Below, piece after piece: positions 54,711 to 62,326 of a stretch of 64,000 nucleotides of DNA. The stretch comes from an uncultured delta proteobacterium (GTDB lineage Bacteria > Desulfobacterota > Binatia > UBA9968): positions 64,001-128,000 of the forward strand of contig CAWJBB010000065.1 of the NCBI GenBank assembly GCA_963840855.1, written 5' to 3'. Positions within the stretch are counted from its first letter, which is position 1. The number at the start of each line of letters is the position of its first letter. The translations under genes were made by a program, and so were the position numbers. Under the pieces are notes generated by a model. That model worked only from the letters and a program-made list of their open reading frames with translations, ran no database searches and was not told the origin of the DNA.

Positions 54711-57020
54711 TTAGTGTTCTTCGGCTTTCCGTATCGCCGCCCAGAGTTTGGGCGCGGTGTAAGGCATGTCGACGTGGTCGATACCGAGGGGAGCCAGCGC
54801 GTCCATGACGGCGTTGGCCACCGCCGGCGGCGCCCCGTTGCATCCGGCCTCGCCCACGCCCTTGACCCCCAACGGATTAAATGGATTCGGCGTCACCGTC
54901 TCGCCCAGTGTGAGCTGAGGCATGTCGCCGGCGCGCGGCACCGCGTAATTAATCAACGAGCCGGTGAGAACCTCGCCGTCGTCACCAAAGAGCATCTGTT
55001 CGCGCAGCGCTTCACCGAGGCCCTGAGCCACGCCGCCGTGAATCTGCCCATTGAGAATCATCGGGTTGATGACAACGCCGCAGTCATCGACCAGGACGAG
55101 TTTTTCCAGCGTCGGCGTCCCGGTTTCCCGATCGATTCTGACCACCGCCAAATGCGCGCCGAAGCCCCAGGCTTCGCGCTTCGGATCAAAAAAGGCGGTG
55201 TCTTGAAGGCCGGGTTCCACACCGCGCGGAACGTTTCCTCCGTACGCAGCGGCGGCAATCTGGCGCCAGGAAACTTTTTTGTCGGGCACTCCAGCCACCG
55301 CGAAGCCGCCATCCGTCTGAACGATGTCCTCGGCTGCCGCCTCCATCAAATGCGCGGCGATACGGCGCGCCTTTTCCATGACGCGATCAATAGCAACTGC
55401 CAAGGCCCCGCCGCCCATGATGGCGCTGCGGCTGCCAAAGGTGCCGCCGCCCTGCTGGACCACCAGCGTATCGCCGTGTCGAATCGCCACGTGATCCATG
55501 GAAACGCCCATCTTCTCTGCCGTAACCTGGGCAAACACGGTCTCATGCCCTTGCCCATGGGGGCTGGAACCGGTGAGCACCGTAATGTCTCCGCTGCGCT
55601 CCACCCGAACCGTGGCGCTCTCAAAGCCGGCGCCGCCACTCGGCTCGGCAAAAGTCGAGAGGCCCACGCCGACCAACTCGCCGCGTTTGCGCGCGTCGTC
55701 TCGGTAGCGAATAAGTTTTTCGTAGTCGGACAACCGCAGCGCCTCGGCGAGCGACTTTTCATAGTCACCCGAGTCGTATTCGACGTTTACGCCCGTGCGG
55801 TACGGGAACTGCTCGGGGCGAATAAAATTCTTGCGCCGGATTTCCAGACAGTCCATGCCCAACTCGCGCGCCGCTTTGTCGATCAACCGCTCGATATTCA
55901 GCACCGACTCCGGCCTCCCCGCGCCGCGATATGGACCGGTGGGGACGGTATTGGTAAAGACCGCCAACACCTCGACGGAGCAGTTTTGGATCTGGTAGCA
56001 GCCCGGGGCCATCGCCATCATGCGCAGCGGCGGTATCGCGGAAAGGGAGTTCAGGTAAGCGCCCAGATTCCCGATCACGCGCACTTTCAAGCCGAGCATG
56101 GTGCCATCCCGCTTGACGGCCAGCTCGGACGTCATCACCTGGTCGCGCCCTTGATTCGTGGTGACGAAATCCTCGCTGCGCGTGGAGATCCACTTGACGG
56201 GCCGGCCGAGCTTAAGCGCCAGATGACTGGCCAGCGCGTCTTCCTGGTAGAGGAGTCCTTTGCTGCCGAACCCGCCGCCGACATCGGGCGCGATGACGCG
56301 AATCCTGTGCTCAGGAAGTCCGATCGCGGTGGCAAGATCCGTGCGCACGCGGTGCGGGCTCTGAGTTGAGAGCCAAACAGTCAGATCTCCCGTCGGTTCC
56401 GGCTTCGCCACGATGCCTCGCGGCTCCATCGCCAGCGCCACCAATCTCGGGCTGGCGATACGCATCCGAACGATATGCTCGGCCTCGGCGAATGCCTTGT
56501 CGACATCGCCGCCTGATTTCCGTGTGATGTAGCACAGGTTGCTTCCAGCTCCTCGCGGGCGAGCGGCGCGCCGGGCTCCAGCGCCTTTTCGGCATTAACG
56601 ACCGCTGGCAGCGCTTCGTATTCCACAACGATGGCGCTCGCGGCATCCTGGGCGAGGGCGCGGCTTTCGGCAACCACCGCCGCCACGGGAGTGCCGGCCG
56701 CGTGGACGGCCCCGCGCGCCAGCAGCGGATGGGGCGGTATCTTCATGCCGGACACCATCGGGATAGCCGGGACATGCAACTGTTCGCTGAGGTCATCGCC
56801 GATCACCACGGCGATCACTCCGGACATCGCCTTCGCTGCGCTCGTATCGATGGAAATTATTTTCGCATGCGGGTAGGGGCTACGCTGAAGCGCCATGTGG
56901 AGCATTCCTGGTAGCTGGATGTCCTCGGTATAAGCATCCTATGCCGGTAATCAGGGGCCCGTCTTCGACGCGGCGTATCGACGCGCCGATAAGTCCAGTC
57001 GTGGTGTGCTCTGTTGTCAT
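54711..57020 (-). CDS. xanthine-dehydrogenase-family molybdopterin-binding large subunit (CoxL form-II-like), two 1-nt frameshifts
   Basis: RSPYPHAKI, GGGFGSK, PYRGAGRPE, HGQGHET, GQIHGG, KGVGE; shifts near 56933 and 56543. Confidence 0.88.
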
Positions 57021-57154
57021 GATGAAGCCTCGTGTTCAAAAAAATGCTTGTGGCTCGTGTTCGCATTCGTGACCAATGTTCGTAAACTAGCACGATCACG
57101 AATCACGAGCACGACTGTTCCCTTTCGCCTTACGCCGGGAGCCTTATATTAGGT

Positions 57155-57360
57155 CTGTTGCAGATTATCATATTGGAGATCATGTTTATGTGACACCGAT
57201 TTCAAGAGCTTGCTGGAATGAGGACCATCGGCGCCTAATCCCTCTCACGAGGATCAAGGACAGACTGTCCCGTCCAGTAAGAGAACGGATCTGAGGTTCA
57301 ATAGAAAGTTGTCCCTTTGTTGAGGACTTATATAAGGCGAACTTTCCGTTCAAAGCTATT
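57155..57360 (+). ncRNA. IS110 bridge RNA (target-binding and donor-binding loops); ends approximate
   Basis: Two stem-closed internal loops whose guide segments match the target and donor junction sequences. Confidence 0.85.
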
Positions 57361-57395
57361 GGAATTGGAAGAACACAACCAAGGAGGAAGAGAGA

Positions 57396-58622
57396 GTGAA
57401 GCGATACTATGTGGGAGTGGATTGGGCTGATGAATTTCACCAGGTATGGGTCAGCGATGCCGAGGGCAAGAAAGTAGCTGAGATGAAGGTTGAGCAGAGT
57501 CCCAAGGGCATGGGCGAGTTTGGCCGTTGGCTCCATGAACGTCAGGCAGAACAGATAGAGCTTTGGGCGGCCATCGAGAAGCCCCAGGGGCGGATTGTGG
57601 ATTTTCTGTTGGACCACGGGGTAGTGGTCTATCCGGTTAATCCCAAGGCCCTGGACCGGGTCAGGGACCGGTTTCGCATGAGCCAATCCAAGAGCGACTC
57701 CTTTGATGCTTATGTATTGGCGGACTTTGTCAGGACCGATCACGCTCATTTGCGAGCTCTTGAGCCTAACTCTGCTCAGGCCCAAGAGTTTAAGATGCTC
57801 ACCCGGGATCACCACCGATTGGGGCGCCATAAGACTCGGCTCATCAATCAGATCGTGGTAACGCTCAAAGAGTATTACCCTCGCCCCCTGGAGGTTTTCT
57901 CTGATCTGGAATCGAAGATCGCGTTGGATTTTCTCACCCAGTATCCGACTCCGCGGGCACTGTCTGATCTTACCCGTAGAAAATGGAACCGCTTTGCCAA
58001 GCGCGAGCACCATCTCGGTGAGGCGCGCTGTAAAGAGCTGTGGGAGAAGCTGAACCAGCCGCAGTTGGGAATTCCAGAACACGTGGTCAGAGCCAAGGCG
58101 CAATTGCTTTTGGTGCTCGTCGCTCAGCTTAAGGCCTTGGCTCAGGCGGTCGAGAGCTATAGCGAGGAGATCCAACGTTTTTTCGCCTCTATGCCGGCGG
58201 CTAAGCTTGCGCAGACACTGCCGGGAGGAAAAAGTGGGACCATCGTACCGATGCTTTGGGCCGAGCTGGGCGATGTCAAGAGCCGATGGAAATCCTTTAG
58301 GCACCTTCAAGCCGAAGCGGGAGGGGTCCCGGTAACCCAATCCAGCGGCAAGAGCCATGTCGTACTGTTTCGTTATGCCTGTAACAAGCTGATGCGATAC
58401 GCCTCGTACTGGTTGTCGTTTAACTCGCTCAATCGCTGTGAGTGGGCGAACAAATACTATCGCGACCAACGGGCGAAAGGACATCATCATCCCCAAGCGC
58501 TTAGGGCTTTGGCAGCGAAGTGGTTGAAAATTATTTTCATCATGTGGAGAGACGATAAGCCGTACGATGAGAACTATCACTTGGCGAACATCGCCCGTCA
58601 GACGATACGCCAGGCGGCATGA
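57396..58622 (+). CDS. IS110-family DEDD transposase/recombinase
   Basis: VGVD, AIEKP, KSDSFDA (DEDD RuvC) and Tnp20 QSSGKS serine; GTG start with AGGAGG RBS. Confidence 0.95.
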   Translation: MKRYYVGVDWADEFHQVWVSDAEGKKVAEMKVEQSPKGMGEFGRWLHERQAEQIELWAAIEKPQGRIVDFLLDHGVVVYPVNPKALDRVRDRFRMSQSKSDSFDAYVLADFVRTDHAHLRALEPNSAQAQEFKMLTRDHHRLGRHKTRLINQIVVTLKEYYPRPLEVFSDLESKIALDFLTQYPTPRALSDLTRRKWNRFAKREHHLGEARCKELWEKLNQPQLGIPEHVVRAKAQLLLVLVAQLKALAQAVESYSEEIQRFFASMPAAKLAQTLPGGKSGTIVPMLWAELGDVKSRWKSFRHLQAEAGGVPVTQSSGKSHVVLFRYACNKLMRYASYWLSFNSLNRCEWANKYYRDQRAKGHHHPQALRALAAKWLKIIFIMWRDDKPYDENYHLANIARQTIRQAA

Positions 58623-58693
58623 AAAAAAATAAACAGGGGACTTGACAAGTCTCATAGAATGTCTGTCCTGAGCAAAGTCGAAGGAGCTCACGC

Positions 58694-59683
58694 CTATTTG
58701 ATCACCTTGTCCGCCCGGTACAGCACAGACTGTGGAATCGTCACGCCGATTTGCTTCGCGGTTTTCAGATTGATGACGAACTCAAACTTGGTTGGCTGTT
58801 CCACGGGTAAATCTGCGGGCTTAGTGCCTTTGAGAATCTTGTCCACGAAAACAGCCGCCCGCCGCCACCGCTCTCCATCGTCAACGCCGTATGAAATCAG
58901 TCCGCCTTCCTCGGCCCAGAGGGCCAGCCCGCACATCGTGGGCAAACGATTCTTGCTGGCAATCTCCAGAAGCGTTTTTCGGTGTCGCAAGGTAACGCTG
59001 CCATGAAAAATGATCAGCCCATCGGCGCGCTCCTTGGTCATTGCGGCGTAGGCGTTCGCAAATTGGCTCGGCTCCTTTACCTGCAAGGATTGAATCTTTA
59101 TTCCTAAAGAGCGCCCCGCTCGGTCTGTTTCTTTCACTTCATCCAGATCGGATCTTGCACCGCCGTGGAGAACGGCTGCTCGCGAGATCTTAGGAAATGT
59201 TTCCTTTAAGAGTTCGAGCCGCTTTGCAGTCATACCCATATCGATGTTCGTGGTTCCGGTCACATTGCCACCGGGACGGGCAAGACTAGCCACCAAACCC
59301 GAAGCCACCAGATCGGTGCCGCTGCCAGCGACAATGGGGATCTTGTTAGTGACTTTCGTGGCTGCCGAAATTGCCGGTCCTCCTGCGACAATAATTTCAA
59401 CTCCAAGTCCGACCAATTCTGTAGCCAAACCTTGCAACCGTTCCCGTTTGCCCTCGGCGTAGCGAGTTTCGACGATAAGGTTCTGACCCTCGACATAACC
59501 CAACTCCCGCAAACGCTGGCGAAAGGCCTCTTGGTAAGGCGTGCCGGTATTCATTAAGAATCCAATCCGGCGGACCTTAGTCGCCTGCTGGGCCTGGGCT
59601 AGTTGGCGGTCGGTCAAAGTAAAGAAAGCAAGTGCGACTAGAAGAAATTTGAAAGTTCCGAATGTGGACCTGTGAGTCGGCAT
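58694..59683 (-). CDS. ABC transporter substrate-binding protein (ABC_sub_bind type)
   Basis: LRELGYVEGQN, LARPGGNVTG, KRLELLKE, PADLPVEQPTKFE.VINLKTA. Confidence 0.92.
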   Translation of the reverse strand: MPTHRSTFGTFKFLLVALAFFTLTDRQLAQAQQATKVRRIGFLMNTGTPYQEAFRQRLRELGYVEGQNLIVETRYAEGKRERLQGLATELVGLGVEIIVAGGPAISAATKVTNKIPIVAGSGTDLVASGLVASLARPGGNVTGTTNIDMGMTAKRLELLKETFPKISRAAVLHGGARSDLDEVKETDRAGRSLGIKIQSLQVKEPSQFANAYAAMTKERADGLIIFHGSVTLRHRKTLLEIASKNRLPTMCGLALWAEEGGLISYGVDDGERWRRAAVFVDKILKGTKPADLPVEQPTKFEFVINLKTAKQIGVTIPQSVLYRADKVIK

Positions 59684-60065
59684 TTGTCCTCCTCTCAAGA
59701 AGAGATAAGCGCGATAGAAGGCCCGACCGAAAACCGCCACGTTAAGCGATTAAACTGTCATTCGGCTTCGTTGCCGAACCAAAATGGGTTAGCAAACGGG
59801 AAAGCGTTCTGCTTATCTCACCGCCCGCCTTTCTCTGTCAAGCCTTACTTAAGAACCGTAGGGCAATCGTTATGCCAAGACCAGCAAAGACGGGGATTTG
59901 AGAAAGTACTTGTAATAACGGAAGAATTTTGCGGACCAGAGTCGACGTTACTGATGAAAGATCCGGCGGGGTGTAGTTAATTTGATATACCCCTGTAGCA
60001 AATTTGATCCACCGGACTTCGCAGTTTGAGTGCATCGCCCGGACGCAACGCAGCGAAATCCCGGA

Positions 60066-60354: not shown

Positions 60355-60565
60355 GCCGCCAAACCTCCAGGCGTTAAGGCTTACATAAATATGCTTTTAT
60401 GTCAGCACATATTCACTTTCCTTTGCCTCTCAACTTTGCGCAGGGTGGTGAGCATAGTCGAACCACAAGTCGCCAAGTCGGATTCGTTTTTCCTTCGCGC
60501 CTTTACGTCTTTTCTCGAGATATTTTTGGTTGCGGCTTCGCCGCGCTAGACTCTTTGTGGTTAAT

Positions 60566-62140: not shown

Positions 62141-62326
62141 GATTCTTCCTCGTGATCATGAAAATCTTGTTAGAATTGCTGGCACATTACCTGCTCCCAA
62201 GGTGCTGAAAAACCTCCGTTCACCCTTCGACCAGCTCAGGGCGAACGGAGTTTGCTTTGATTCACTAATAAATTTCCGTTCATGCTGAGTACGTCGAAGC
62301 ATAGAATTCCTTATTTCAGGAGCTTG

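Follow-up and report, generated by a model that had tools for sequence, protein, structure and literature searches.

What lies between the CoxL-like gene and the ABC substrate-binding gene of an uncultured delta proteobacterium, how could it move, and what leads it to its site? The locus is part of a 64,000-nt stretch, here called the window, of contig CAWJBB010000065.1 (positions 64,001 to 128,000, forward strand; assembly GCA_963840855.1; Desulfobacterota, Binatia, UBA9968). The 1.5-kb interruption between the two genes is accounted for by one element, which is very probably an intact insertion sequence of the IS110 group (IS621-like), 1520 bp long with one CT counted, that moves by bridge-RNA-guided recombination, catalysed by a DEDD/serine recombinase, between its circular form and a short DNA target. 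It is an ordinary further member of the known IS110/IS621 type and reveals no new mechanism.

Boundaries and core of the element

On the + strand of the window sequence, the left junction reads GGGAGC, CT (57143-57144) and TATATT (57145-57150). The right junction reads TTGACA (58642-58647), 15 nt (58648-58662), CT (58663-58664) and then GTCCTG. The length between the two CTs gives an element of 1520 bp, with the following parts at its junctions:

57134..57142, + strand: left target (LT) half-site, the insertion flank, resembling the left half of uninterrupted paralogous modules
57143..57144, + strand: CT core dinucleotide, left copy, from the window sequence and copy comparison, with a single CT in uninterrupted modules
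57145..57395, + strand: left non-coding end (LE), 251 bp, source of the bridge RNA, from sequence, alignment and RNAalifold
57145-57150, + strand: TATATT at the start of the LE, putative -10 element of the junction promoter and right donor (RD), found in 80/80 relatives with both ends
58623..58662, + strand: right non-coding end (RE), 40 bp, with TTGACA (putative -35 element) at 58642-58647 and the left donor (LD) ATAGAATGT at 58654-58662
58663..58664, + strand: CT core dinucleotide, right copy, from the window sequence and copy comparison
58665..58686, + strand: right target (RT), a hairpin unit with GTCCT as its 5' arm (GTCCT-GAGCAAAGTCGA-AGGAG), resembling repetitive extragenic palindromes (REP)

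The organism's own assembly (7.1 Mb, 93 contigs) was searched for further copies. Besides the window copy, two matches at 98% identity (contigs C35 and C81, the siblings) and two at 78% (C61 and C18) were found, together with three short matches on C32 to the right flank of the window copy. The three near-identical copies are 1521-1522 bp each with both CTs, and they part from unrelated flanks exactly at ...CT/TATATTAGG and ...GAATGT/CT. The 78% copies showed identical junction behaviour, being CT-flanked in unrelated flanks. Recombinase relatives were also collected, comprising 7 loci from genome contigs and the best 80 of 123 from metagenome contigs (72-98% protein identity). With the five own-genome copies, the N-terminus was present in 88 loci, a recognisable left end in 84 and both ends in 80, and these 80 have the element ends in common with differing flanks.

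The minus strand of C32 carries an uninterrupted paralogous module that reads through the left flank of the window element (18/19 bases), a single CT and the right flank, so that the restored target predicted by the initial annotation exists as a natural sequence. A second such module, again with left flank, one CT and right flank, was found in a genome of the same genus (G004, contig C82). Because the uninterrupted modules hold one CT, the CT is the common core at both junctions, without target duplication, and the element is 1520 bp. Both modules are paralogues downstream of related ABC substrate-binding genes and not empty alleles. No orthologous empty site was recognisable in the 40 genomes of relatives that were searched, owing to the very large paralogous family of the right-flank gene, which gave hundreds of partial matches, the best outside the own genome at 68% identity.

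The initial annotation, made from the sequence alone, had placed the ends to the base around a CT core, and the ends common to the own-genome copies and relatives bear this out. Other copies with different boundaries were looked for, and all five own-genome copies have the CT junctions. Its proposed search for other insertions and empty sites succeeded in part: further copies and the paralogous modules were found, and no true empty allele was recognised among the relatives searched.

The recombinase

A single long open reading frame (ORF) lies between the ends (57396-58622, + strand), encoding 408 aa from a GTG start.

57381..57387, + strand: ribosome-binding site AAGGAGG, 8 nt 5' of the GTG start, kept in the left-end alignment
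57396..58622, + strand: recombinase gene, 408 aa, DEDD RuvC-like domain and Tnp domain, with D9, E61, D101, D104 and S317-G318

The product matched the Pfam families DEDD_Tnp_IS110 (PF01548, E 8.2e-32, residues 6-162) and Transposase_20 (PF02371, E 4e-5, residues 271-355, 24.4 bits against a cut-off of 21.3). It also matched the full profile (1-343) of the NCBIfam model NF033542, 'IS110 family RNA-guided transposase', with 154.3 bits against a cut-off of 140. Among solved structures the sole matches were the IS621 transposase (8wt6, phmmer E 8e-9) and the ISCro4 transposase, and the assignment to the IS110 family made in the initial annotation is thus confirmed. The catalytic residues of IS621 are given as D11/E60/D102/D105/S241, with an S241-G242 loop (PMC11208158). 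In the 8wt6 alignment, D9, D101, D104 and S317-G318 fall onto these residues, while E61, in an AIE motif, lies two residues off the HMMER placement of the IS621 glutamate. The window ORF is full length and has all five catalytic residues.

The bridge RNA and its guides

The left-end alignment consists of long invariant blocks broken by short hypervariable segments. In the RNAalifold consensus of 67 distinct sequences, two stem/internal-loop/stem modules were predicted and the hypervariable segments fall in the internal loops. Compensatory changes were seen in 6 of the 35 predicted pairs, one of which is AU in 15, CG in 15 and UA in 12 sequences. The consensus donor-module pairs 178-180/218-220 and 183-185/213-215 were put down to partial self-complementarity among the invariant guides and set aside; they never vary and are therefore uninformative. 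Folding of the LE as a single sequence was uninformative as well (z-score -1.06), its minimum-free-energy fold pairing parts of the guide loops.

One internal loop matches the two halves of the insertion site and the other matches the right and left ends of the element. As defined for IS621 (PMC11208160), the left target guide (LTG) is the same as the LT top strand plus core, the right target guide (RTG) is the reverse complement of core plus RT, and the left and right donor guides (LDG and RDG) relate to the donor as LTG and RTG do to the target. The loops fit these definitions, the LTG ATCGGCGCCT against ...GGGAGC-CT, the RTG AAGGACAG against CT-GTCCTG, the LDG ATAGAAAGT against the right end ATAGAATGT and the RDG ATATAAG against CT-TATAT. 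The parts of the predicted RNA are:

57210..57280, + strand: target-binding-loop module, with an outer stem, a GGAC/GUCC inner stem, an internal loop and an apical hairpin (RNAalifold, compensatory stem changes)
57227..57236, + strand: LTG loop ATCGGCGCCT; position 57232 is C here and G in both siblings
57256..57263, + strand: RTG AAGGACAG, the reverse complement of CTGTCCTT; position 57260 is A here and G in the siblings
57264-57265, + strand: predicted handshake guide AC for LD positions 6-7 (GT), by analogy with IS621 (PMC11208158)
57283..57351, + strand: donor-binding-loop module, with a 7-bp outer stem GAACGGA/UCCGUUC, an internal loop and a GUCC/GGAC apical hairpin
57300..57310, + strand: LDG loop AATAGAAAGTT, with the pairing part ATAGAAAGT at 57301-57309
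57328..57338, + strand: RDG, in which ATATAAG (57330-57336) is the reverse complement of CT+TATAT
57337-57338, + strand: predicted handshake guide GC for LT positions 6-7 (GC), by analogy with IS621 (PMC11208158)

On the 3' side of each loop, the dinucleotide directly after the core-pairing AG (AC and GC, respectively) would, by analogy only, suit the handshake guides of IS621.

Guides match targets and donors across the family

Guide-target matching was tested on 74 unique insertions of 84 rows, after removal of duplicates and of rows with a left flank shorter than 14 nt, a right flank shorter than 10 nt or a missing end. The null was obtained by randomly re-pairing guides and flanks in 2000 permutations. 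For the RT, non-core identities were 4/6 in 12, 5/6 in 57 and 6/6 in 5 insertions, with a mean of 4.9 compared to 2.7 when permuted (maximum 3.09). For the LT, the mean was 5.5/7 compared to 3.5 (maximum 3.91), and no permutation of the 2000 reached the observed value on either side. When one insertion was taken per distinct guide pair (n=49), the means were 4.96 against 2.52 for the RT and 5.69 against 3.56 for the LT. Since the flanks played no part in finding the loci, the test is independent of the locus collection.

The own genome gave a further match at the level of single bases. Compared to both siblings, the window copy shows 22 differences, 4 of them in the left end, and 2 of those in the target guide loops (57232 and 57260). 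The window copy has A at 57260 with T at 58666 (GTCCT target), and both siblings have G with C (GCCCT targets). This covariation is the most direct evidence that guide and target belong together.

On the donor side, the LDG equals the LD at 9/9 positions in 75/80 elements, and in three loci (L010, L016 and L021) an A-to-T variant of the LD (...GAATGT) is compensated by T in the LDG. The window LDG ATAGAAAGT matches its right end at 8/9 positions. The RDG matches CT+TATAT contiguously over at least 7 nt in 81/84 elements. In many relatives the LTG pairs with just the C of the core.

A REP-like hairpin family supplies part of the targets

The target unit at 58665-58686, with 4/5 stem pairs, lies between two genes and belongs to a family of hairpins. 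A strict pattern (5-bp stem, loop GAGY-N3-5-TCGA) was matched by 115 units in the 7.1-Mb genome and by 2 in reversed-sequence controls. Stem sequences differ between units (GTGGT, GCCCT, GTCCT, ACCCT and ATGCT) yet stay complementary. The family is thus a short imperfect palindrome, extragenic and present in many copies, which is REP-like but not the E. coli REP family, and no Rfam family matched the hairpin units at gathering thresholds across the whole window. Three other units with the loop of the target unit were located in the window:

60445-60466, + strand: hairpin unit, same GAGY-N3-5-TCGA loop family
62222-62242, - strand: hairpin unit, same loop family
62282-62302, + strand: hairpin unit, same loop family

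The REP-like target and the repeat-like motifs near 62223-62300 noted in the initial annotation are therefore real, the RT being the 5' arm of a unit of the 115-unit family and the last two units listed belonging to the loop family of the target unit. These three units are not predicted targets, because they are preceded by CCGTTC, as are 68 of the 115 strict units, and not by ...GCCT. Only 7/115 strict units carry CT-G(T/C)CCT as the guides read it, and the repeats open to the element are thus a minor subset. On the + strand of contig C1 of the own genome, near 85838 and 92628, two unoccupied units have ...ATCGCCT before and GTCCT-GAGC... after them. Both fit the window LTG (..CGCCT) better than the actual site does, match the RTG exactly and are predicted to be free targets for the window variant.

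Insertion of IS621 and other IS110 members in REP elements has been described (PMC11208160), and for ISPpu10 a target stem-loop has been reported as a second specificity determinant (10.64898/2026.03.19.712850). A serious possibility here, if short of probable, is that the element reads about 11-12 bp wherever these are present and that its association with REP-like units is a by-product of bases common in one class of repeat arm. The window copy (C65) and the C81 copy lie in hairpin units, but the right flank of the third near-identical copy, C35, has no hairpin, which together with the 7/115 count fits this explanation. Furthermore, the own genome contains GCCTGTCCT in 37 copies against 73 expected and GCCTGCCCT in 69 against 94, neither being enriched over base composition. 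The relatives argue the other way, as 20 of their 75 unique right flanks have a perfect stem of 5 bp or more that opens with core plus RT, compared to 3.7 in shuffles, and 39 have one of 4 bp or more, compared to 12.3. Different guide classes also occupy different palindromic repeats, and the ISPpu10 precedent is likewise in favour of a role for the hairpin. The earlier statement that the element homes to a repeat family thus needs to be narrowed: two of three copies do lie in REP-like units, but the element is better described as reading about 11-12 bp found in a minor subset of the repeats.

A predicted promoter at the joined ends, and the question of mobility

When the ends are joined at one CT, TTGACA and TATATT are separated by a 17-bp spacer (15+2). 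Among the 80 elements with both ends, TTGACA was found in 80/80 and TATATT in 80/80, and joining gives a 17-bp spacer in 79 of them and an 18-bp spacer in the remaining one. Some circularity attaches to these counts, because patterns allowing 1-2 mismatches were used to locate the ends of the relatives. The invariance of TTGACA is not explained by guide pairing, since the guide-matched part of the right end does not include this motif. In the integrated copy, a consensus scan of 56950-58750 revealed no + strand promoter-like site 5' of either the bridge RNA or the ORF; the lone + strand site, at 58509-58537, is inside the gene near its 3' end. TTGACA and TATATT are thus predicted to become a promoter pair only once the ends join. 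The claim of a junction promoter directed into the bridge RNA and recombinase stands at this level, with conservation in 79-80 of 80 elements. The absence of an in situ + strand promoter fits the weak expression reported for the IS621 bridge RNA from chromosomal copies (PMC13626964).

By analogy with IS621, excision to a circle would switch on the bridge RNA and probably the recombinase too. The RNA would then bracket the circle junction (ATAGAATGT-CT-TATAT) and the ...GC-CT-GTCCT target together, and strand exchange would take place at the CT, hence the lack of a target duplication.

Several observations weigh against an intact, mobile, RNA-guided element, to which the partial circularity of the promoter counts may be added. 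No Rfam model matched at E up to 1 within positions 56500-59500 or at gathering thresholds across the whole window, and the bridge RNA was for this reason delimited from the alignment. The window LTG pairs with 4/7 non-core LT positions by Watson-Crick pairing plus one U.G wobble, at the low end of the family range. In all three own-genome copies the LDG has A (57307) opposite T 58660, a combination present in 3/80 elements and in no relative, and LD-LDG mismatches are described as generally poorly tolerated by IS621 (PMC11208160). By that analogy, reduced activity is possible. In the C81 copy, a 1-nt deletion ends the ORF at 218 aa. Sequencing runs containing part of the stretch were also searched (20 runs from 13 studies, mostly soil metagenomes, all kept as assembled contigs). 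Neither the circle junction (58664 to 57145) nor a joint skipping the element, as expected of an empty allele, was found in X1, X2 and X5 (DNA) or X15 (RNA), where assembled contigs drop rare forms. The contigs of these four runs have the element in other flanks, diverging before 57141 and after 58672-58684. For activity, the contig data neither support nor contradict.

These points raise an unlikely alternative, namely that the element is structurally intact but a dead or crippled relic, in which the LDG-LD mismatch and weak LTG match block efficient pairing and movement has ceased. The mismatch (absent from the 77 other elements), the 4/7 LT pairing, the frameshifted sibling, the lack of a circle junction in the assembled contigs, the lack of an in situ promoter and the intolerance reported for IS621 would all agree with it. 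The mismatch, however, is present at three different sites, so that, barring an exchange of ends between copies by recombination, the lineage has apparently made two or more insertions since the mismatch arose. The window ORF is full length with all catalytic residues, and the base change in the window RTG is matched by its target, which would be expected only of a guide that was working when the copy inserted. The initial description of the element as intact and probably active thus holds for the ORF, the catalytic residues and the presence of the lineage at three different insertion sites in its own genome. Activity itself we infer from sequence, with the LDG mismatch and the missing circle junction set against it.

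Scarcely credible is a true core other than CT, either neighbouring or longer such as GCCTG: all five own-genome copies have GC before and G after the CT, but relatives with other guides show ACCT/CTTC, CCCT/CTCT, TCCT/CTCC and others with CT alone in common, the bases adjacent to CT covary with the guide loops, and the uninterrupted modules hold exactly one CT.

One metagenome relative (L020) has AT instead of CT at its left junction (...GAAGC-AT, then TATATT) and CT at the right junction; the last bases of its LTG are CTT. Insertion into a core other than CT, with the heteroduplex left unresolved, may account for this.

Comparison with known systems

The closest described system is IS621 of Escherichia coli (PMC11208160, PMC11208158), which has the same DEDD RuvC-like domain and Tnp domain with a catalytic serine, a CT core at both junctions without target duplication, and a long LE with a short RE. 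Also alike are the LE-encoded bridge RNA with target- and donor-binding internal loops in the order LTG, RTG, LDG, RDG, the core within the RTG and RDG pairings, the dinucleotides at the expected handshake-guide positions, the sigma-70-type promoter rebuilt across RE-core-LE, which for the window element is predicted from sequence, and the insertion in palindromic extragenic repeats. Protein similarity is remote (phmmer E 8e-9), and the recombinase has 408 aa compared to 326, the additional residues separating the RuvC-like domain from the Tnp domain. The LE measures 251 bp compared to the 191 bp quoted for IS621, and the RTG reads CT plus 5 nt, whereas the wild-type IS621 RTG pairs 4 bp including the core (both PMC11208160). 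Unlike IS621, many relatives of the window element have an LTG pairing with just the core C, the target repeats are of another family (loop GAGY-N3-5-TCGA), and the RNA is without a matching Rfam model.

ISPpu9 and ISPpu10 of Pseudomonas putida (PMC12288879, 10.64898/2026.03.19.712850) are likewise described as IS110-family elements with several copies per genome in repeated intergenic palindromes, and the target stem-loop of ISPpu10 adjoins the RNA-matched site (10.64898/2026.03.19.712850). That stem-loop is described as a GC-rich 5' extension of the target, whereas the window hairpin is on the 3' (RT) side and starts at the core or immediately past it. With the IS1111 group (seekRNA, or RE-encoded bridge RNA) the element shares the recombinase family and the RNA-guided logic, but IS1111 members are described with a short LE, a long RE containing the RNA and subterminal inverted repeats of 7-17 bp (PMC11208160). 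The 251-bp LE with the RNA and the 40-bp RE therefore place the window element in the IS110 group and not in IS1111.

Wider meaning

The locus adds a natural bridge recombinase for which the ends, core, four guides, predicted handshake dinucleotides and putative junction promoter have been mapped, and the family adds 49 distinct natural guide pairs with their targets from soil and groundwater metagenomes. This set could supply orthologues with a longer RTG (core + 5 nt) for genome editing, as well as material on guide drift. For annotation of this genome, the locus marks the REP-like hairpin family as insertion hot spots.

More tentatively, this clade of bridge RNAs may co-diversify with palindromic repeat families of soil bacteria, guide changes shifting the element among stem variants, with the hairpin perhaps recognised in itself and the lineage mobile despite its fixed LDG mismatch. 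As the RTG reads the core plus the 5' arm of the hairpin, single-base guide changes would move the element between stem variants of the repeat. If so, one such step may have been caught in the own genome, in the A/T at 57260/58666 compared to G/C in the siblings.

Flanking genes and modules

To the left of the element, the gene for the CoxL-like protein (aldehyde oxidase/xanthine dehydrogenase; window 54711-57020, - strand) is split over at least 3 frames. Two ORFs, 54711-56465 and 56381-56905, overlap in different frames, and the conserved N-terminus, which extends to about 57020, is in another frame still. At position 56931, contigs of two metagenome runs (X2 and X5) have one base fewer than the window. 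The gene is either a pseudogene or broken by assembly indel errors; if the latter, the frameshift of the C81 copy could be an artefact too.

To the right, the ABC_sub_bind gene (PF04392; window 58694-59740, - strand) belongs to a very large paralogous expansion in this bacterial family: partial DNA matches run into the hundreds across 24 same-family genomes, and the own genome has 12. Several of these paralogous genes have, 3' of the stop codon, a module of about 50 bp consisting of the hairpin unit and CTCACGCC. In the own genome (G000), the minus strand of C32 holds three such modules at intervals of about 5 kb (L006-L008), and a fourth was located at 58665-58714 of the window. The element occupies one of these four; another reads ATCCT for GTCCT, and another is without the CTGTC bases.

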